The position numbers and the translations under genes are program-made. From Promethearchaeota archaeon (GTDB taxonomy: Archaea > Asgardarchaeota > Hermodarchaeia > Hermodarchaeales > Hermodarchaeaceae): a stretch of 32,000 nt of DNA. This document shows positions 9,279-26,735 of the stretch, one piece after another. The stretch spans positions 34,270 to 66,269 of the forward strand of contig JBHLMI010000011.1 of assembly GCA_048938295.1 (NCBI GenBank). The letters are read 5' to 3'. Under the pieces are notes generated by a model. It was not told the DNA's origin and made no database searches. It saw only the letters and a program-made list of their open reading frames with translations. Each line of letters begins with the position of its first letter. Position 1 is the first letter of the stretch.

Positions 9279-9454
9279 CGATTACACCTCACTTGATGAA
9301 ATGGGTAACAGACACAGGTAATCTATCTTGTGATACATACTATTGGACTTTTCTTAAACCATAATCTGATTTCATTTGCCAGATAGATGAAAACGACGAC
9401 TAGCGTGATGAACAGGATAACACAGCACTCAAGAAGCTATTGACCAGCAAAGGA

Positions 9455-10390
9455 TTACCGTGGTTTGTAAAGGTCTGTGCTCAAGTATTTTAGCCCTGAA
9501 TCGTTTAGCAACGTGACGACGGTGGCTTTCGGTCCTAATGTTTTCGCGATCCTAATGGCTGCTACCACATTGGCACCTGACGAAGTACCTGCGAAGAGTC
9601 CTTCCTCTCGTGCTAAGTGTTGAGCCATCTCTTTGGCTTCCTGTGTGGAAACTCGCATTATCTCATCAATCAAACTGGGCTTCCACAACGGGGGTATAAA
9701 CCCAATACCGATTCCATCGATACCATGAGCTCCCCTGCTCCCACCAGACAACACAGGTGATTCGTTCGGTTCAACAGCTACTATTTTCACATCTGGATGC
9801 TGCTTTTTCAAAACCATCGCGGTTCCCATGAGCGATCCTGCCGTCCCAACGACTTGGACAAAGGCATCAACCGTTCCCTCTGTTTGCTCCCAAATTTCTT
9901 CACCGAGGGCAAAATATCCGGAGATCTGGTCTTGGTTATACAGTTGATTTGTCCAGTAGGTTTCAGGTGTTTCACTAATTTTGCGCGCTTTTTCAATCAT
10001 TGCCTCAATTAATTCCTTGGTTATCCCGCGTCCATGACTCGGAATAACTGTTACTTCCGCACCTAAAGCCTGCATATGATCCAGTTTATCACGACTAAAG
10101 GCATCCGAAGAGATTATCCGAAGCCGATACCCTTTCGCTGCACAAATAAATGCTAACGATGTGCCCGTACTTCCCCCGGTATATTCAACTACCGTTCCAC
10201 CCGGTTTCAACCGCCCATCTTGTTCGGCTTTAACAATCATTGCTTGTGCCATACGATCTTTCATGCTCCCCGTTGGGTTTTCCCACTCCAACTTTACAAG
10301 CACACGGGCATATCCCTTTGGAACCACTTGCTGCAACTGCACCAATGAAGTATTCCCAATGGCGGCTAGAATATTCGCTTCACTTTTCAC
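9455..10390 (-). CDS. PLP-dependent cysteine synthase family protein (non-canonical substrate loop)
   Basis: KLEWENPTGSMKDR (PLP Lys), GTAGS, TSSGAN, DSGLKYLS. Substrate loop reads EYTGGSTG rather than EPTSGNTG. Confidence 0.88.
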   Translation of the reverse strand: MKSEANILAAIGNTSLVQLQQVVPKGYARVLVKLEWENPTGSMKDRMAQAMIVKAEQDGRLKPGGTVVEYTGGSTGTSLAFICAAKGYRLRIISSDAFSRDKLDHMQALGAEVTVIPSHGRGITKELIEAMIEKARKISETPETYWTNQLYNQDQISGYFALGEEIWEQTEGTVDAFVQVVGTAGSLMGTAMVLKKQHPDVKIVAVEPNESPVLSGGSRGAHGIDGIGIGFIPPLWKPSLIDEIMRVSTQEAKEMAQHLAREEGLFAGTSSGANVVAAIRIAKTLGPKATVVTLLNDSGLKYLSTDLYKPR

Positions 10391-10538
10391 GCAGCCAACC
10401 AGCTACCTCCAACTGCGTCTCTAAAGCCTAAATATCTTATTCCAAGTTAATGACGCAACAGTAGGCCATTATGTTGCGTTTCGAAGACATACATGCCTAG
10501 GATTTTTCAAATGATGCGAAAATTAGCGTTGTTTCAAG

Positions 10539-11768
10539 TCATTCAGTGGGTTTTATGCGTAATCTGTAGAGGAGTAACAAAAGGGGAATTAACAGGAGGC
10601 TGCCACTAGCAATAAGGAATGCATAGAGGTAATTATTTCCACTGGCTGCAAGGAGAAAACCAACAGTGATTGGTCCCAGGACTTGTCCTACATCCATAAT
10701 GGTGCTGAGAAGCCCGAGTGCTGTGCCTTTCAATTTGTGGTGCACCACCTCGGTGATAAACGGGATAGTTGCAGAAACTACCCCTGCCATCGCTAACGCC
10801 ATGGGAACGATTACACCGATTTGAATCAGAGGATAGGGAAGCAACACCAGCAAGATAGTGAATACACACATCGCAATAAGTCCCCCAATAATGAATACCT
10901 GTCGCCCATATCGATCGGATAACGCTCCGAGGGCTGGGCTTGAAAACAGGAGTATAGCGGTAAATAGGGATAAGAGGGGGCCGGTCATCCACTCAGCAAT
11001 TCCGGCGTTGGTCGTCCAGTAGAGGGGCATGAAAAATTCGAAAGCCCCATACAGGAAGAACACAGCCGCTTGAGCCAAGCAAATTAACAACACCTGGACG
11101 GTTGTGACCTGTCGTAACATTGCAAAGTTCATTCTTTCTTCAGAAACCGGCTCAAAATCCTGCCTGTGCTTCGTGGTAAGTGAGAACACAAGCGTTAATC
11201 CAAGCGCAATGAGGCCGAATACGCCACATGCCAAGTAGACTCCTTGGTACACATTGAGGCTCAGTACAGCGAATATCGGGAACGCCAGTAACAGTCCTCC
11301 TACGAGGGGAGCCAGCATGCGACCCACACGTGTTGATGAGGAATAGGTAGCCATCCGCTCTCCACGACGGCTCGTATACAAACCCGCCACTATTGCTAGG
11401 GCAATCGGACCAAGAATAGCGGTCGCGAATCCGTGTAGAAATCGCACCCAGAAGAGCTGCTGCGGTGTAATAATGGGGAGATACAAGAAGGGAACAAATG
11501 CTACAAGTAGGATTGAAATCCAAAGCATCCCGCGTGGTCCTTTTCGATCTGCTACCATTCCTGCCGGGATACTGACGAGAATTCCTGGAATTGTCGAAGC
11601 AGCTGCAATGAATCCCATCTGCTCAGGGGAAGCACCCAGAAATCCAGCAAAAAAGGGCAGCACAGGTGACTTGGACATCGTCGTACTCAAAATTGCGACT
11701 GCACCAATAGCCGAAAGCAGCACCATGGGGGTGAAGGTCTGAGATTTCGACCCCGATTCCTGTGCCAT
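10539..11768 (-). CDS. MFS transporter (DHA-like)
   Basis: Motif-A-like GMVADRKGPR and GALSDRYGRQ; about 12 TM helices. Its ATG overlaps the stop of the upstream ChrB gene (TAATG). Confidence 0.88.
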   Translation of the reverse strand: MAQESGSKSQTFTPMVLLSAIGAVAILSTTMSKSPVLPFFAGFLGASPEQMGFIAAASTIPGILVSIPAGMVADRKGPRGMLWISILLVAFVPFLYLPIITPQQLFWVRFLHGFATAILGPIALAIVAGLYTSRRGERMATYSSSTRVGRMLAPLVGGLLLAFPIFAVLSLNVYQGVYLACGVFGLIALGLTLVFSLTTKHRQDFEPVSEERMNFAMLRQVTTVQVLLICLAQAAVFFLYGAFEFFMPLYWTTNAGIAEWMTGPLLSLFTAILLFSSPALGALSDRYGRQVFIIGGLIAMCVFTILLVLLPYPLIQIGVIVPMALAMAGVVSATIPFITEVVHHKLKGTALGLLSTIMDVGQVLGPITVGFLLAASGNNYLYAFLIASGSLLLIPLLLLLYRLRIKPTE

Positions 11769-12307
11769 TATAAAGATCCCCCCGGAATTGATGGAGGCAA
11801 TCGCTCACGCAACGTGGTATAGATCAGGTGGAACCGCTCTTCACGGTTCAACGGAACCAATTGTTCATGAAGTTCTTCACGAACCCGACGCAACAGCAAC
11901 CCAGCATATAATGCATCCAATACAGTCAAGCCCTTTTGTACCGCGTCCTGGTCGTTGTCACCCAGAAACGCTAAACCACTCAATGTCAACTCCACTCCAC
12001 GCGCATCCGGAGCCCTATCCAAATCTTTCTGAATATCCGCTGAATGAATTATTGCGGCCATATCCTGCAACACCGGATCTGTCAGCGCATAGTGCTTCAC
12101 TAACACCTCGAAGGTACACATGTTATCGTGATGGGTAAAAGGAATATCTAGGTCAGGAAAATCAAACGGCGTTCCATCCTCCTCAGCAAGTACTGCACCT
12201 GGCCACGACACAAACTTGAACTCCGCATCTAGATCAATAAACCGTTTTATCAACCACGGACATGCCACCCGATCTACATGTACATGGGCACGCGTAACCC
12301 AACGCAT
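11768..12307 (-). CDS. Chromate-resistance ChrB C-terminal-domain protein
   Basis: MRWVTR...VDRVACPWLIKRFID..AEF.FV, PFD, FTHHDNMCTFE, IHSADI, DARG...G, typical of the ChrB_C family. Confidence 0.85.
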   Translation of the reverse strand: MRWVTRAHVHVDRVACPWLIKRFIDLDAEFKFVSWPGAVLAEEDGTPFDFPDLDIPFTHHDNMCTFEVLVKHYALTDPVLQDMAAIIHSADIQKDLDRAPDARGVELTLSGLAFLGDNDQDAVQKGLTVLDALYAGLLLRRVREELHEQLVPLNREERFHLIYTTLRERLPPSIPGGSL

Positions 12308-20176: not shown

Positions 20177-21871
20177 TCACGCTGTAACAACCTCAATTTT
20201 GAGTTTGGGTTTACTAATCACTTCACGTTGTTCTTTGAGGATGTTTCGGGCAATGTCTAAGGCTGTTTCATCATCGTAGACGCCTTGAGCGTTTTTCCGT
20301 GCTTCTTGGAGCATCTGACGCTGCACCTTGAGTTTCAAATCCCCAATGGTCAACGCACCAATACCATAGTTTTCAGGAATTAGCTCACGAAAATCATCTG
20401 TAGGAGTTAGAGATTCGATTCCACTTGGAGGTACAGCATTTACATCCAATAGAATTTTTGTCCCTAAAACAGATTGCAGCTGTTCGAGTGATACTAATTG
20501 AATACCCGGAGAGCCAACAGCGAAAATAAGGTTAGCATCCTCTAGAAGTTCATGAAGGTCATCAGGTGAAGTTGATTGCACGCCTTCCACTTTATTACTC
20601 TCGATTGAGGCCCGGTGCGCTACTTCTCTGGCCCGGTCAATATTTCGTGAGGTTAATACTGTCAGCGCTCCACTCTTGGAAAGTAAATGAGCCACACTTT
20701 CTCCAACTGGTCCTGTACCTGCAAGAACTAACGCAATGTTACTTTTGAGTGAACCTTGGTTAAGTCTGCGCAGAGCTTCCTCAGCTTTGGCAACCATAGC
20801 CGCCGCCGTGGAAAATGCACCGTGTGGATCAATAATTACTGCCGTTTCGAAAGGTTTCACCATGGCCTTTTGAATTCTGTCTGCCATTTGACGAGCAAGG
20901 GAAACCTGACGTCCTCCAACAAAGAAGCAAAGATGCTTTACTCCCTTGGTTCCCCTTGAAAAGATAGCATCTTGGACTAAGTCTTGAATCCGATCAAGCG
21001 ACACTCCAGAATATGGAACTACAACATCAAATCCTGCGTCGTACGCTACACAGATATCAAACGGGCTAGCGTGGTCATCCGCTTCTAGGAAAAAAAGAAT
21101 GTCACTTAGTTTTGTTTTTGGGCGCTTAATCACTGGCACAACAGAAACCGAAGAAACTCCTGTGAGCTCCGTCATGCCTTTCATTTCCTCTTTTGGCACT
21201 TCTGAAAGAATTCGTTTGAAGCTTATAGGGACCACATCTACCTCCAAGGATTGCAAAAGTTCCATTAAACCTTGGAAATGTCTGGGGCTGCTCAAGTGAA
21301 ACGTGGTTATTCGCTTCTTCTTAAGAAGTTCAGCTTGTTGTAAAATCCCCATAGTAATCCAGCTTTCACGGATTCCAAATTGTACTTGTCTAATTTCCTC
21401 TTCAAGTTCATCGTGCAAGTACTGACCATAGGCGACAAGCCGATCTATTTTGTCTTGCACACTTGGAGTTATTTTTTCATCTGATAGGATTCTTAACCCG
21501 TCTAAGACCTCATTGCGCTTTTCCAGTTTCAACTTGATACTCCGTGAGAGGTATGAGTGAGCGAACTCGTCCATTTCAACCGCATAAAAAGGGATCTTTA
21601 ATTTTGAGAATACATCCGCTACTGGGTTGTCTTCACGGAATTCCTTCAAGCTCCGCAGACCCAATTCATCGGTGGCAAAATCTGGTGACTCTGATTCAGC
21701 AATCTGCTTGATCATATCGCAATAAGCCATTGAAGGGCGTTTTATTGCAGAAATCTTCGATTCAGATTCAGAAGGAGGGGAATGAATGAGCCAAGGTTCG
21801 TCATAGGCCTTTCTAATTAGGAAGACCCGCAATTTTTTCCCACTTAAAGGGGCAAGCTCTAACGTTTTCAA
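20177..21871 (-). CDS. Fusion: N-terminal TraB/ChaN/EreA-like domain plus NAD(P)-dependent methylene-H4MPT/H4F dehydrogenase (MtdA-like)
   Basis: C-terminal ~305 aa: SPFDICVAYDAGFD, QDAIFSRG, FVGG, DPHGAFSTAAAMV, VLAGTGPVG, LTSR, DVNAVPPSGI, GALTIGDLK. N-terminal ~235 aa is soluble, with PDFATDEL, RE and RHFQGLMELL. TTG start with AGGTGA RBS. Confidence 0.85.
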   Translation of the reverse strand: MKTLELAPLSGKKLRVFLIRKAYDEPWLIHSPPSESESKISAIKRPSMAYCDMIKQIAESESPDFATDELGLRSLKEFREDNPVADVFSKLKIPFYAVEMDEFAHSYLSRSIKLKLEKRNEVLDGLRILSDEKITPSVQDKIDRLVAYGQYLHDELEEEIRQVQFGIRESWITMGILQQAELLKKKRITTFHLSSPRHFQGLMELLQSLEVDVVPISFKRILSEVPKEEMKGMTELTGVSSVSVVPVIKRPKTKLSDILFFLEADDHASPFDICVAYDAGFDVVVPYSGVSLDRIQDLVQDAIFSRGTKGVKHLCFFVGGRQVSLARQMADRIQKAMVKPFETAVIIDPHGAFSTAAAMVAKAEEALRRLNQGSLKSNIALVLAGTGPVGESVAHLLSKSGALTVLTSRNIDRAREVAHRASIESNKVEGVQSTSPDDLHELLEDANLIFAVGSPGIQLVSLEQLQSVLGTKILLDVNAVPPSGIESLTPTDDFRELIPENYGIGALTIGDLKLKVQRQMLQEARKNAQGVYDDETALDIARNILKEQREVISKPKLKIEVVTA

Positions 21872-21879
21872 TTAATCAC

Positions 21880-21896
21880 CTGCCTATATTAGGCAG
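21880..21896. promoter_or_regulatory. Perfect 7-3-7 inverted repeat abutting the mtd ribosome-binding site
   Basis: CTGCCTA-TAT-TAGGCAG. On the minus strand its 3' arm runs into AGGTGA. A TATA-like TATAAAAA lies at 21959-21966. Confidence 0.45.
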
Positions 21897-22027
21897 TTAA
21901 GGCTTCTTCCCATCTGAGAAAAAGGCGATGAAAATTTATTTTAGATGAAAAAAGACAATTTTTATAGTCAAGCTCGTTGCCCAAGGCAAATTGTGAACTA
22001 GATCGGGGCAGATATCTTAAGTTCAAA

Positions 22028-23371
22028 TCATGTTTTTCGTTCTCCAGCTTCTCTAAATCTATAATCTGTATGAGCTGCACAAGAAACGCAGGGATCAAAA
22101 CATCGAACAGCCATCATAGCCCGTTCAAGGATTTTTTCATTTGGCCAACCAAGATTTATGCAAGCACTCATGACGTTTTGTACAATCACCGCTATCGCAC
22201 GGGCATTAAGCTCTGTTGGCACTCGAATGTCGATATCTTTGATTCTGTTGCTACTATTTGTACTTACTCGGTAAAGGAGAATTCCCCGTGGAGCTTCAAC
22301 TGCACTAGCTCCGATTCTAGTTCCTGGTGTCAACCCAATTGAAGAGTCTTCATCTTTCGACCATTCTGTTTCCAACAGGTTGATTGCATTTGTGAGAGCG
22401 AATTCCATTTCGTCAATTCGAAGAAGCCCGGTTTGGAACAGGTTAGGCACTCCTATGTACGATTTCTTACTTTTCGTTGGCTTAGACTGAAGTACAGCTA
22501 GTCGGGCATAAGGCCCCGCTAAGAGATTCTTGGATTCGTCGTTTGATTTGATGTAGACAACTTTTGTGGGGGCATCTAACAGGTCCTGCTCCACTAAGTA
22601 TTCAGAGAAATCATCACAGGCAACGGTTTCATGTGTTCCATCATCAGAAATGAAATGGACCTGATTAAGACCAGAAAACCGGTTGGCCTTTGTTTCAAAG
22701 GAGCTAATATAAAGTGGAAGAGGAAGTGCATAGTGTTGGATTTCCTCTTCGATTTCATCTAGTAGCGAATTGTAGTATTCTTTAGTCCATTTCACTCCCG
22801 AGAGCGTTGAAGAAAGTTGTTGGATAAGATCTTGCTGTTGAGTGCTATTGATGTTTTGAACGACTCCACCTGGAATCAGGTTAAAGGCTAAATTAGTATT
22901 ACCTGCTGTTGCGGTGATTAACGCTTCTGCACACTCGTATAATTTTGTAGCAATTGGTAGAACTCGTGGTTGCATGCGATCAATGCCAAGGATGTCTTGT
23001 CGAGAGATTTGGTTTGTAAGATACATCAAATCAGCCAAAGTAGAAAAGAACACACTATATGTGTGCGATCGGATGATTTCTCCCAAGAGCGCCAGTTCGC
23101 GGATTAACTCGGCAATTGGGGGAATTGATACATCTGTAGTCGATTCAATTGCTTTTATTGCTCCTATTCTATGGGCAACTGGACAAATTCCACAGATCCG
23201 CGGAACAATTTTTGGTAAGTCATTAATGTGTTGTCCAATTAGAACGTTCAAAAAGTCCCGTGCCGTTGGCATGTTATATACAACATTTGTTATGCGATCT
23301 TTGTCTCGCGTTACAATGAGCTTGCTTTCGCCTTCTATCCGTGTCATTGGTAAGGATAGTCGAATTTTCAT
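22028..23371 (-). CDS. mvhA: Group 3 [NiFe]-hydrogenase large subunit (MvhA-like), divergent
   Basis: TRIEG, L1 PRICGICPVAH, GPYAR, EAPRG, VPT, L2 FDPCVSCAAH, then a 13-aa C-terminal extension. ATGA overlap with the mvhG stop. Confidence 0.88.
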   Translation of the reverse strand: MKIRLSLPMTRIEGESKLIVTRDKDRITNVVYNMPTARDFLNVLIGQHINDLPKIVPRICGICPVAHRIGAIKAIESTTDVSIPPIAELIRELALLGEIIRSHTYSVFFSTLADLMYLTNQISRQDILGIDRMQPRVLPIATKLYECAEALITATAGNTNLAFNLIPGGVVQNINSTQQQDLIQQLSSTLSGVKWTKEYYNSLLDEIEEEIQHYALPLPLYISSFETKANRFSGLNQVHFISDDGTHETVACDDFSEYLVEQDLLDAPTKVVYIKSNDESKNLLAGPYARLAVLQSKPTKSKKSYIGVPNLFQTGLLRIDEMEFALTNAINLLETEWSKDEDSSIGLTPGTRIGASAVEAPRGILLYRVSTNSSNRIKDIDIRVPTELNARAIAVIVQNVMSACINLGWPNEKILERAMMAVRCFDPCVSCAAHTDYRFREAGERKT

Positions 23372-24102
23372 TGTTTAAACTTCAGCTCCGGTTTTTGATA
23401 TCTAAAAGCGAGAGCCGCATACTTACGAATGGCGTCGCTGACTTTTATGAGAGAGAAGAAATTAGCGAGAGTCGAGGGTAGATTCCGGTCTATGGCACCC
23501 ATACAGCCATCACAGGGAGTGGCTCCCTTAATACAAAGGGCTTCACACCCTGCACGGGTTATTGGGCCTAAACAGAGTATTCCCTCGCGTAAAAAACAGC
23601 TTTGGGGAGGGCGTACGTTATGTAAGGACGTTATCTCAACATCAAATGCTTGATCTTGGGCAAACGGGCATTCTCCACACACGTTTTTGTCAGGGAGTTC
23701 GATTTCAGAACCATCAATTGCGCTCATCAACAGATTTCCAAGTAACTTTCGTGGTGGCGGACAGCCAGGTAATGACATGTATAAGTCAACGAATTTACTG
23801 ATGGGATCTATACGCATGTTGGGGGATTGGCTCATTATTCCACCGAGAACGGCACAGCTTCCCAAAGCGATGATTTTGGTTCCTGCGGTCCATAGTCTTC
23901 GAAGAAGTTCCGCGTCTTCATCTCGAGTGACTCCACCTTCTACAAATGCGATATCTAAATCCGTGTCAACTTGAACATCAGAGATTAATCGAAACACACG
24001 AATATCAACTGATTTAAGGAGTTCAGGGAATAGGGCGCTACCAAGTATGGCAAACATACACCCGCTACAGGAGTTTAGTTGAAGAAAACCAATCTTAGTC
24101 AT
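23368..24102 (-). CDS. mvhG: [NiFe]-hydrogenase small subunit (MvhG-like)
   Basis: SCSGC, VEGGV, ALGSCA..GGI, LPGCPP, VCGECP, CFL..G..CLGP.TRAGC.A.C....PC.GC.G. TAATG overlap with the hdrA fusion stop. Confidence 0.9.
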   Translation of the reverse strand: MTKIGFLQLNSCSGCMFAILGSALFPELLKSVDIRVFRLISDVQVDTDLDIAFVEGGVTRDEDAELLRRLWTAGTKIIALGSCAVLGGIMSQSPNMRIDPISKFVDLYMSLPGCPPPRKLLGNLLMSAIDGSEIELPDKNVCGECPFAQDQAFDVEITSLHNVRPPQSCFLREGILCLGPITRAGCEALCIKGATPCDGCMGAIDRNLPSTLANFFSLIKVSDAIRKYAALAFRYQKPELKFKQ

Positions 24103-26630
24103 TAGCCTAATAGCTCCTCTAATTCAGTGGAAAATTGATTGACCTGGTTCGCGAACACGTGACCTTCAACGGCTGACACATTCAATACGCGTACACGTTT
24201 TTGTAGTTCGTCTCCATAAAAATCTGCGAGAACACCAATTCGTGTCTGAGCCTTCTTGATACCCTCAAAGAACCGGCAAGCTGTTTCATGACAGCCAACA
24301 ACCATAACACCATCAAATCCGTGGTTTAACGCTGTTATTACATAATTTGCATCGATTGAACCCGCGCATGGCAGTCTAATGACCATTGCACCAGGATCAT
24401 AGTCCAGTCGACGAATGCCTGCATTATCCACTGCCGGGTATCCACATGAGTTGCAGGAAAACACAATTATTCGGGGGGAGGCTGTGCTCATTGAGAGGGC
24501 ATTCATTGCAGCTTGAACCTCCTCCTGAATTGGAGGGGAAGCCAGAGCTCCGGTTGGGCATATTGCGATGCAGGCTCCACAGCCTTCACATTTTAGCGTA
24601 TCGATACGAAGTGTGTCAGCTATGATGGCGAGAGCGTTAAAGGGACAGGACTCTACACAGAGATTACAAAGCCCACATTTTTCTTGATTAATTTGAATTG
24701 GTATGTCCCCTGCAGGGAGGCTATCTTTTCCTAATAGAAGAAGAACTTCTAATGCGGTATCTCGAGAATCTGCTACTAAGTCGGCATAAGCTTTAGGACC
24801 AGTTATAGACCCACAAGCCCAAATACCTGAGGATAAGCTCTTTGGGTCAATGAAACCTCGTCTATCCAAGGAAAAATTCGTCATACTACGAAGGGTTAGC
24901 TGTTGGTCTCCTGGCGTCATACCCATATTGAGAACAATAAGATCTGCTGGGAATGAATTTGAATCAGTTTGGATTAAGCGTTTATGCCCCCGATGAATGA
25001 TCTTAATGCTTTCACAAAAGTGAATATGAGAATATTCTGGGATGAAGGTGCTTCGATCAGGGGGAATTAAGGCTATCTGGTAAAGGACATTGATGGAAGT
25101 ATTGGGCGCCTTTTTTTCTACAATCTCTAGGTATTTGAGCGCGAGGTTACAGCAGTAGTTTGAACAAGCCTTGGTTCGGTTCTGACATTGAAGAACAATT
25201 ATGGAACGGGCAGGTTGGCCGGTTGTTGGGCAGATTATATTGCCTCCTGTTGGTCCATCAGGCGCTAGCATACGTTCAAATTCGGATGAAGTGATAATAT
25301 CCTTAGCAGGGTTATATTGAATTGCTCCTTGAGATGGCAAGGTTTTAGGATCGCATACTTCTGCGCCTGTTGCAAGAATTATGGCACCAACCGTGAACTT
25401 CTTGGTTACAGGTTCTTGATCAAGATTAATCGCTTTAGATGGGCATGCTTTTTCGCATTTTCGGCATGTCCGGCAAAAATCAATATCCTCCTGTTCAATG
25501 ACGGGTCTACTAGGATATGCGGCAGGGCAAGGCACATGGATGAGTTTACGTTGGCTAATATGGTACTCAAATGCATCTGGACGAGACTCAGGACACGTAT
25601 CGACACAAGAGCCGCACATTATGCATTTTGATAAATCGACATATCGGGGCTGTTGCAGAGCAGTAATCTCATAATTGCCAATTGTTCCTGAAATATCGGA
25701 GAGTTCGGTATTAGTAAGAATTCGTATGTTCCCTGAAAGCATAACTGAGGATACATCCTCAGCAATCATACATGGACCACAATCGATAGCCCCATAGATG
25801 CTTTCCCATCGCCGCGCGATTCCACCTAGACATGACTCTTTCTCTAGCAGAATAATGGAATAGTTGGATTGAGCCAAAACCTTGGCAACCTCTACTCCAG
25901 CTAGTCCACCACCAATGATGGCGGCACTTTTCCGAATTGGTAACGTACGCTTTGGAATTGAGACCCGATGCCGGAGCATCTCAGCGCTGGCCCGTATTAG
26001 AAGTAACGCTTTTTCTGTGGCTTGCTCGGGTTTATTTCTATGAACCCAAGCACAATGTTCACGTATGTTCGCGAATTCAATGGGTATATCCAATTGCATT
26101 CGAATAGCGGTAAACATTTGGCTGTGAAGGTGAGGGGAGCAGGCTGCAATTACAAGATTATTCAGAAAATACCGATCACACCATGCTTTTAGTTTCTCAA
26201 CGTTTTCTAACAAACATAAATGCTGAAACACCATTGTACGTTCAACATATGGCAGATCATTGACTTTCTCCATAAGCTCCCCGACATTAATGGCTTGATG
26301 AATTTCCTCCCCACAAGAACAGACAATTACGCCAATACGGAAAATTGCTCCTCGTGAATCCGCTTCGCTCAGATCGATTGCCTCTCCGGCCATCAATTGT
26401 TCCTTGGCGGTCATTAGGCGGATTGCATTTGTTCCTGCGGCGGAAAGTTGATAGAAGCCATTCCGTTTCTCTATGAACCCCTCCAGTTTTTTGAGATGAT
26501 AATTGAAGAGACCTGTTTTCGTGAGCCCTAATCTTTTCATCAAATCATTATAGGTGATTAGTCGTTCAGCGTCTAATATTCGAAGAATTTGTTCGCGGAG
26601 TGGATGGGCCAAAGCCGCATATACATTCAT
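24102..26630 (-). CDS. hdrA: Winged-helix HTH :: HdrA :: MvhD triple fusion protein
   Basis: aa 1-80: wHTH (ALAHPLREQIL...GLFNYHLKKL...YQLS..G). HdrA part: IGVIVCSCG, AACSP, NIREHCAWVH, IIGGGLAG, DCGPC, two inserted CxxCxxCxxxCP, EFERM, CSNYCC, two C-terminal ferredoxin motifs. MvhD part: FSCNSCGYP, RLPCAG, DGV..VGC....CRF..G. Confidence 0.9.
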   Translation of the reverse strand: MNVYAALAHPLREQILRILDAERLITYNDLMKRLGLTKTGLFNYHLKKLEGFIEKRNGFYQLSAAGTNAIRLMTAKEQLMAGEAIDLSEADSRGAIFRIGVIVCSCGEEIHQAINVGELMEKVNDLPYVERTMVFQHLCLLENVEKLKAWCDRYFLNNLVIAACSPHLHSQMFTAIRMQLDIPIEFANIREHCAWVHRNKPEQATEKALLLIRASAEMLRHRVSIPKRTLPIRKSAAIIGGGLAGVEVAKVLAQSNYSIILLEKESCLGGIARRWESIYGAIDCGPCMIAEDVSSVMLSGNIRILTNTELSDISGTIGNYEITALQQPRYVDLSKCIMCGSCVDTCPESRPDAFEYHISQRKLIHVPCPAAYPSRPVIEQEDIDFCRTCRKCEKACPSKAINLDQEPVTKKFTVGAIILATGAEVCDPKTLPSQGAIQYNPAKDIITSSEFERMLAPDGPTGGNIICPTTGQPARSIIVLQCQNRTKACSNYCCNLALKYLEIVEKKAPNTSINVLYQIALIPPDRSTFIPEYSHIHFCESIKIIHRGHKRLIQTDSNSFPADLIVLNMGMTPGDQQLTLRSMTNFSLDRRGFIDPKSLSSGIWACGSITGPKAYADLVADSRDTALEVLLLLGKDSLPAGDIPIQINQEKCGLCNLCVESCPFNALAIIADTLRIDTLKCEGCGACIAICPTGALASPPIQEEVQAAMNALSMSTASPRIIVFSCNSCGYPAVDNAGIRRLDYDPGAMVIRLPCAGSIDANYVITALNHGFDGVMVVGCHETACRFFEGIKKAQTRIGVLADFYGDELQKRVRVLNVSAVEGHVFANQVNQFSTELEELLG

Positions 26631-26704: not shown

Positions 26705-26735
26705 AAAAAAGCTTGCCCTGTTTAAAAAGGCAAGC
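26705..26735 (-). terminator. Hairpin plus U6 tract downstream of the zinc-finger gene
   Basis: GCTTGCC (26711-26717) pairs with GGCAAGC (26729-26735), 11-nt loop, followed by TTTTTT on the minus strand, about 40 nt after the 26773 stop. Confidence 0.6.

Follow-up and report, generated by a model that had tools for sequence, protein, structure and literature searches.

The closest described relatives of the enzyme treated here are MtdA and MtdB of Methylorubrum extorquens (PDB 1LU9, 1LUA, 6TLK, 6TGE), which belong to the NAD(P)-dependent type of methylene-tetrahydromethanopterin (H4MPT) dehydrogenase (hereafter Mtd), are typically stand-alone proteins of about 290-300 amino acids (aa), and are encoded in formaldehyde-oxidation clusters. 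A bathyarchaeal Mtd has been described as nearer to the NADH-dependent methylotroph enzyme than to the enzyme that depends on coenzyme F420 (Loh et al. 2021, PMC7886697). Here we analyze a gene from a Promethearchaeota archaeon (Asgardarchaeota; Hermodarchaeaceae; assembly GCA_048938295.1), located on the minus strand of a 32,000-nucleotide (nt) stretch of contig JBHLMI010000011.1 (positions 34,270 to 66,269; hereafter the window). In contrast to typical MtdA/MtdB, its product spans 564 aa and carries a 257-aa N-terminal extension. Unlike the M. extorquens proteins, the archaeal enzymes carry, or adjoin a gene for, an extra domain of 220-250 aa, and their loci lie in a Wood-Ljungdahl/hydrogenase context. 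We treat the longer protein as an apparent architectural variant of MtdA/MtdB, and its length as no ground for exclusion from the family. The features of the gene, in window coordinates, are as follows.

20177 to 21871, minus strand: whole gene, predicted to encode a TraB-like domain, a linker and an NAD(P)-type methylene-H4MPT dehydrogenase (564 aa), an architecture found in its homologues
21203 to 21871, minus strand: N-terminal alpha/beta domain (aa 1-223; hereafter the N-domain), a new family with a probable TraB/ChaN-like fold
21662 to 21685, minus strand: PDFATDEL motif (aa 63-70), in which E69 is the putative counterpart of the Glu in the TraB motif VAVEL
21329 to 21568, minus strand: long helical hairpin (aa 102-181) between strands 3 and 4, from the secondary structure of the model
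21254 to 21373, minus strand: IRESWI (aa 167-172) to HLSSPRHFQGLMELL (aa 192-206), with R168, W171, H192 and H198; this region pairs in hhalign with ERDxYMA...VGAGHxxG of TraB
21101 to 21202, minus strand: weakly conserved linker (aa 224-257; 29% median identity, predicted local distance difference test (pLDDT) score below 60) with one conserved strand, VSVVPVIK
20240 to 21100, minus strand: MtdA/MtdB-type dehydrogenase (aa 258-544), from Pfam and PDB alignment
20825 to 21064, minus strand: Mpt_N lobe of the dehydrogenase
20702 to 20719, minus strand: Rossmann motif GTGPVG (aa 385-390)
aa 407-409, minus strand: TSR, after Rossmann strand 2
21869 to 21871, minus strand: TTG start codon, 4 nt behind the AGGTGA ribosome site at 21876 to 21881

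The TTG start is correct, since homologues from other genomes open with the same MKTLEL peptide. PDFATDEL, IRESWI, HLSSPRHFQGLMELL, GTGPVG and TSR had all been singled out in an earlier note on this DNA, made from the letters alone, and each lies where that note had put it.

The C-terminal half matches Pfam family PF09176 (Mpt_N) over aa 270-349 with 101.2 bits (cut-off 27), and weaker Rossmann-type Pfam matches extend over aa 374-477. Alignment to solved structures pairs aa 258-544 end to end with residues 5-287 of MtdA (6TLK, 6TGE and 1LU9; E 5e-40 to 9e-40), including the Mpt_N lobe, an identical GTGPVG, DxNAxPPxGI and GALxIGxLKxK, and 40 columns are invariant across 26 archaeal homologues. 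Because solved MtdA is aligned over residues 5-287, this half is by alignment a complete MtdA/MtdB-type enzyme, as the earlier note had proposed, and aa 258-544 very probably form an active NAD(P)-dependent methylene-H4MPT dehydrogenase. NADP is probably the preferred cofactor, because T-S-R, with no acidic residue, follows Rossmann strand 2. The fusion is the sole PF09176 gene of its own genome.

Among 5.8 billion proteins searched, 629 relatives were found, with named sources in Hodarchaeota, Thorarchaeota, Hermodarchaeota, Bathyarchaeia and Hadesarchaea. Nearly all of the best 120 of these 629 relatives measure 560-590 aa and cover 97-100% of the query, at identities down to 40%. Across 26 homologues, the median identity to the window protein is 43% for the N-domain (aa 1-223), 46% for the enzyme domain and 29% for the linker. 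A two-domain form of approximately 565-575 aa is seen repeatedly in Asgard lineages, Bathyarchaeia and Hadesarchaea. Since hundreds of archaeal proteins, some with identities as low as 40%, share this build, the two-domain open reading frame (ORF) is real and not an assembly artefact. Split versions do occur in some Lokiarchaeia, which would be in keeping with two genes joined artificially by assembly or gene calling. At this locus, however, that explanation has virtually no probability left and is already refuted by the hundreds of independent full-length homologues, by an ORF free of stops and frameshifts, by a linker that is in frame and partly conserved, and by contigs from four public sediment/mangrove DNA runs, which span the ORF and the domain junction with substitutions and no insertion or deletion. 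The assembly read-through of two genes that the earlier note had set against its own claim of a fusion is thus excluded by homologues and independent contigs, and the fusion is genuine.

The distribution of the N-domain over protein architectures ties it to one partner. An N-domain profile run with HMMER against 1.84 billion representative proteins retrieved 135 clusters, none of them TraB-like, which comprise N-Mtd fusions of 550-580 aa, Mtd-N fusions, stand-alone proteins of 200-265 aa and fragments. All informative architectures among these clusters contain Mtd and no other partner; a candidate new architecture (P0248, 1181 aa, five matching stretches) proved to be a saposin-repeat false positive. 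The reversed order, Mtd-N, is seen in protein P0174 and in an ORF on a contig of a Halobacteriota metagenome-assembled genome (L026, 337-2429), where Mpt_N covers residues 16-97 and the N-domain roughly 300-493. In five Loki-type loci the two parts are split: a gene for a 241-243-aa N-protein is followed, 20-60 bases on, by a gene for a 327-337-aa Mtd that opens with the conserved linker strand VSVVPVIK. Immediately before the N-protein or fusion gene, most Loki-type genomes also have an N-domain paralogue of some 205-225 aa with a more divergent sequence (for example L016:6657-12392; L024, L044, L060, L072 and L079 around 9320-11790; G348:C16:353953-355349). These tandem paralogues have lost H198 and E169 and keep D/E69, D99, E102, R/K168 and W171. 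Around Mtd genes that lack the domain (from Thermoproteota, one Hadarchaeota genome, Borrarchaeum, Methylomirabilota and Proteobacteria), no N-domain ORF occurs in the 10-kb flanks.

The N-domain is therefore an exclusive partner of Mtd, whether fused to either end of it or encoded by an adjacent gene. Because fusion on either side is accompanied by fission and by tandem paralogy, we argue that the N-domain would be a physically associated subunit of Mtd.

Some of these loci show further peculiarities. A further stand-alone N-domain gene follows the reversed fusion (L026/P0174), and in L016 the whole unit is duplicated, as paralogue plus fusion and then paralogue plus N-protein plus fusion. 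In L024, L044, L060, L072 and L079, the split N/Mtd genes are followed directly by a co-directional gene for a CDC48/VCP-type AAA ATPase; in L019 the CDC48 gene is on the opposite strand.

Sequence searches place the N-domain outside described families. Searches of Pfam, NCBIfam and PDB sequences with aa 1-255 gave no match, 22 N-domains had no Pfam match at E up to 10, and the TraB family (PF01963) matched neither any of these 22 domains nor any protein of the own genome. Profile-profile comparison by hhalign with 30 archaeal TraB proteins gave a faint signal in the expected region, with P 0.015 (0.0057 and 0.0049 with our own alignments), the core stretch pairing IRESWI...HxxSPxHxxG with ERDxYMA...VGAGHxxG. 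With relaxed settings the alignment is colinear through four motifs, adding PDFATEELGxR/PdvVAVELcxxRY and VDIDENA/IDRDI. The residues E69, R168 and H198-x-x-G201 align with TraB E39, R188 and H216-x-x-G219, so that the motifs named in the earlier note (PDFATDEL, IRESWI and a late His) are the same ones that hhalign aligns with TraB. The observed score of 23.6 stands against 14.9 for the reversed TraB profile and 22.8 for the best of 60 block-shuffles, a thin margin. In a language-model search, a bathyarchaeal TraB/GumN cluster ranked second of the three closest clusters that bear a name, at 0.80, the same value as for a phage helicase-loader cluster; named rows of this search are often due to chance, and we take the TraB/GumN cluster as a weak lead.

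A departure from TraB concerns the first motif of that family, GxxH, which follows strand 1. Its histidine, H15, is invariant in 30/30 TraB sequences, and no histidine stands at this place in any of 96/96 N-domain family members inspected, where strand 1 reads LxVxLVEKEY; the absence of the first superfamily His suspected from the window alone is thus a property of the family. The N-domain does keep the Glu after strand 2 (E69), an acidic VDxDE after strand 3, R168 of the 'ERD' helix and the second His, H198. Mtd-linked orthologues retain E69, R73, D99, E102, R168, E169, H192 and H198; in a comparison of Asgard, Bathyarchaeia and Hadesarchaea, 17 columns show no variation. The N-domain consequently falls outside TraB/PrgY/GumN (PF01963), having neither a profile match nor the first GxxH.

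An AlphaFold2 model of the N-domain, built on 22 sequences (pLDDT 83.8; predicted template modelling score 0.79), orders its elements as strand 13-20, helix 48-61, strand 65-69, two short helices, strand 95-98, the two-helix hairpin 102-181, strand 187-194, helix 196-208 and strand 212-223. Foldseek with this model against PDB returned nothing at E below 0.001; its top rows (RecA, KaiC and histidine phosphatases) had template modelling scores of 0.2-0.3 and were discarded. A wide VIA search gave coiled-coil matches to the hairpin (aa 100-169) only and was uninformative on the core. When Foldseek's 1000 best candidates were re-aligned with VIA for whole-domain matches, those spanning strands 1-5 and the hairpin were of three kinds: a TraB-family chain, ChaN and a Pasteurella toxin region. 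The TraB profile matches, among PDB sequences, Tetrahymena chains deposited as 'TraB family protein'; this subunit of Tetrahymena complex IV (PDB 8B6H chain DQ, 7W5Z chain E) is the sole solved TraB-family chain found. ChaN of Campylobacter jejuni (PDB 2G5G, haem-binding) matches the N-domain in structure and has no sequence similarity to it; the erythromycin esterases EreB/EreC (PDB 6XCS) likewise lack sequence similarity, and EreC is not among the N-domain matches listed. TraB, Tiki, ChaN, the erythromycin esterases and the toxin domain were reportedly placed in a single superfamily by Sanchez-Pulido and Ponting (2013) and Bazan et al. (2013). As a control, an archaeal TraB was modelled (pLDDT 85.9) and put through the same structure search. 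The N-domain proved as near to TraB and ChaN as the TraB control to other families of the group, and somewhat nearer to TraB. The order of strands and helices is identical in the N-domain and TraB models, with a core of b1-a-b2-(a)-b3-helical lid-b4-a, and several helices of the TraB model occupy the position of the N-domain hairpin.

It is conceivable that the likeness to TraB/ChaN is convergent or generic: the N-domain would then be a three-layer alpha/beta fold without kinship to them, equipped with a helical hairpin, and its motifs would be similar by chance. The Foldseek result, an hhalign probability of 3-7% and a score barely above the best block-shuffle speak for this possibility, which we regard as unlikely all the same. 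All three kinds of whole-domain match come from what we take to be one fold group, and the scores equal those of a genuine TraB model against other families of the group. The four conserved motifs, moreover, follow in the same order on equivalent structural elements, and the TraB/GumN cluster, albeit a weak lead, is among the nearest three named by the language model. The N-domain is probably a separate family within the TraB/ChaN fold group, and it is not a member of Pfam TraB. Of the TraB/Tiki/ChaN/EreA-like assignment in the earlier note, the fold resemblance and the motif order are upheld; membership of Pfam TraB is not.

The N-domain was found in 86/301 sampled genomes of the window's phylum and in 34/90 high-quality ones, with carriers concentrated in a few families (55/68 genomes in one, 7/18 in the window's own). 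F420-dependent Mtd (PF01993) is encoded in 200/301 of the same genomes, and comparison of the two lists gives 79/86 Asgard carriers with both. The fusion enzyme is thus an addition to the F420 enzyme and not a replacement for it; the possibility that it serves as sole Mtd is dismissed by these carriers and by the own genome, which encodes F420-Mtd as well as the methenyl-H4MPT cyclohydrolase Mch. The contrast by which the earlier note had set the gene apart, methanogens using F420-Mtd, fails for the same reason. A quick, unrooted maximum-likelihood tree of 102 Mtd domains separates the archaeal sequences, together with Methylomirabilota, from the proteobacterial MtdA/MtdB clades. N-linked forms occur in at least three well-supported archaeal clades: the window with locus L001, Bathyarchaeia with Jordarchaeia, and the Loki-type sequences. 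Some rows labelled 'Mtd only' in this tree represent proteins cut off at a contig edge or a split copy (L025, L019_8672). With a large archaeal clade in existence, and the bathyarchaeal enzyme already noted in the literature (PMC7886697), the description of MtdA/MtdB as bacterial methylotroph-type enzymes was too narrow.

Taken together, the reading that we favour, and place slightly on the probable side, is that of a two-module H4MPT enzyme of one-carbon (C1) metabolism in the Wood-Ljungdahl pathway, with the N-domain as a non-proteolytic accessory subunit of Mtd. The narrower proposal that this subunit binds both Mtd and, probably, a ligand has in our estimate an even chance; the metal, haem or cofactor suggested as ligand in the earlier note is conjectural. 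The accessory reading is preferred because the first His is absent, because the paralogues lose further 'catalytic' residues and because the partnership with Mtd is strict. Held in a fixed complex with Mtd, the N-domain would gate, regulate or assemble it. The NAD(P)-type Mtd would work beside the F420-dependent Mtd of the same genome, and with both enzymes present methylene/methenyl-H4MPT would exchange hydride with F420 as well as with NAD(P). The C1 branch would thereby be coupled to the NAD(P) pool and to the neighbouring HdrA-hydrogenase redox module described below. Units bound to H4MPT could in this manner provide a hydride shuttle between F420 and NAD(P), useful where the F420H2:NADP+ oxidoreductase Fno is lacking.

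Several observations weigh against this picture. Contact between the two modules is read from gene arrangement, and the conserved polar cluster (E69, D99, E102, R168, E169, H192, H198) resembles a working pocket more than a dead one, so that catalysis is conceivable. The kinship with TraB is itself faint, as HMMER reaches no TraB, ChaN or EreA, no sequence method does so at a conventional threshold, and the hhalign probability for TraB is low. The npdG/Fno gene (TIGR01915) was not detected in the own genome, which is weak evidence in a genome 91.6% complete.

Such a polar cluster would suit an active enzyme. The N-domain might be a metal-dependent hydrolase with a remodelled active site, whose second reaction, perhaps of a cyclohydrolase-like or deformylase-like kind, would act on a cofactor or on a C1 unit bound to H4MPT; the protein would then be bifunctional like FolD. 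The conservation of E69, R73, D99, E102, R168, E169, H192 and H198 and the 17 invariant columns are in line with such an activity, the TraB/ChaN fold group consists largely of hydrolases, and consecutive enzymes of a pathway are commonly fused. Characterised hydrolases of the TraB fold, however, are reported to require the first GxxH His as general base or metal ligand, and it is this residue that is missing in 96/96 members; the tandem paralogues are also without H198 and E169, and the canonical Mch of the own genome leaves no pathway gap for a new cyclohydrolase. That Mch likewise removes the motive for seeing the N-domain as a cyclohydrolase replacement, a candidate we dropped. FolD, a bifunctional methylene-tetrahydrofolate dehydrogenase/cyclohydrolase, offers an analogy only, in that a C1 dehydrogenase is joined to a second module; the folds are unrelated and Mch is here encoded separately. 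We consider active hydrolysis rather improbable, and return to the accessory subunit as the preferred role.

The genes upstream of the fusion gene in the window, all on its own strand, belong to a heterodisulfide reductase/hydrogenase group:

24102 to 26630, minus strand: winged helix-turn-helix (wHTH)-HdrA-MvhD protein
23368 to 24102, minus strand: [NiFe]-hydrogenase small subunit
22028 to 23371, minus strand: [NiFe]-hydrogenase large subunit

Downstream of the fusion gene in the window lie an ArsR-type regulator and hsp20. Neighbourhoods were compared by ORF clustering over 27 N-domain loci and the window. HdrA-MvhD homologues adjoin the gene in 13 Asgard loci, the window included, with a [NiFe] large subunit in 8 of the 13 and a small subunit in 7; they are co-directional with it in the window and L001, and diverge from a common intergenic region in the Loki-type loci. 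HdrA was not seen in the fetched flanks of L018 and L020. The link between C1 and H2 metabolism that had been surmised from the gene's position after a hydrogenase operon thus has a conserved neighbourhood behind it, and this neighbourhood may reflect either a complex or common regulation. In six Bathyarchaeia loci the gene directly upstream is F420-mtd, and four of the six have ftr and an MvhD-FrhB fusion nearby.

Such neighbourhoods would suit an N-domain that acts as a docking adaptor, attaching Mtd to HdrA-MvhD/[NiFe]-hydrogenase in Asgard and to F420-Mtd/MvhD-FrhB in Bathyarchaeia, in a supercomplex where the methenyl/methylene-H4MPT step is coupled directly to the redox chemistry of H2 or F420. 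Adjacency of HdrA-MvhD in 13 Asgard loci and in two different arrangements, F420-mtd immediately upstream in six Bathyarchaeia loci, and the fact that the sole solved TraB-family chain found is a respiratory-complex subunit all lend it some credit. Judging from the MtdA family, however, the hydride of Mtd would pass directly to NAD(P), without a flavin or iron-sulfur site, and electrons of HdrA could enter Mtd only via a diffusible carrier. The partner genes, moreover, vary between phyla, in contrast to the conserved N-domain, two loci are without HdrA within the fetched flanks, and adjacency may mean common regulation only. Docking is accordingly a distinctly unlikely role in our assessment. 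A bolder version, with the TraB-like module as the physical coupler of Mtd to these same partners (HdrA-MvhD/[NiFe] in Asgard, F420-Mtd/MvhD-FrhB in Bathyarchaeia), is a long shot; in it, the module might bind a redox or pterin cofactor in the conserved acidic/His/Arg pocket. If true, the coupler would make up an H2- or F420-linked methenyl-H4MPT reductase supercomplex, functionally like Hmd and unlike any described enzyme. We retain the accessory subunit of Mtd as the working interpretation.

Full-text literature outside subscription journals yielded no description of the N-domain, of its TraB-like fold or of the split and permuted forms, and public annotation calls the relatives NAD(P)-dependent methylene-H4MPT dehydrogenases. 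In architecture the protein is a new form of an enzyme already known, and its extra domain represents a new family within a known fold. A core step of carbon fixation in several large uncultured archaeal groups thus has an unexplained obligatory partner, an apparently degenerate TraB/ChaN-like domain. Genome surveys that label the gene plain 'Mtd' overlook a domain that is as conserved as the enzyme and makes up nearly half of the protein, together with its exclusive partnership with Mtd and the co-occurrence with F420-Mtd. Models of Asgard and Bathyarchaeia physiology, and of hydrogen-dependent eukaryogenesis, give this pathway a central place. A known role of the partner, which may regulate or assemble Mtd, have a second activity or couple it to HdrA/hydrogenase, would establish the electron carriers that supply the C1 branch in these uncultured archaea. 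For the TraB/Tiki/ChaN fold group, the N-domain would also mean a new branch, probably one without proteolytic activity.

Two further genes recur around the N-domain loci. A fusion of MvhD (FlpD), a 4Fe-4S ferredoxin domain and an FrhB/FdhB-like F420-binding domain lies near the gene in Bathyarchaeia and Asgard loci (L017:8388-10250, L002, L007, L012, L015, L019, L022 and L023). In Bathyarchaeia and Jordarchaeia (L002-L015), a gene of about 335-368 aa that combines MazE/AbrB-type and PhoU domains lies convergent and directly downstream in 12/12 loci with enough flank.

Repeats lie upstream of the fusion gene and of wHTH-hdrA. An inverted repeat TTGCC...GGCAA with a 3-nt spacer lies at 21977 to 21989, just before a TATA-like CTATAAAAA, and a second one with an 11-nt spacer at 26713 to 26733, upstream of wHTH-hdrA; the window has no other match. 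An operator shared with the hdrA promoter was considered and rejected, as the spacing differs (3 vs 11 nt) and 15/100 shuffles also reach two matches, which is not significant. None of the public runs listed is an RNA dataset carrying the locus. A perfect 17-nt palindrome, CTGCCTAATATAGGCAG, spans 21880 to 21896 and overlaps the first bases of the AGGTGA ribosome site, and could be a candidate mRNA hairpin or operator.

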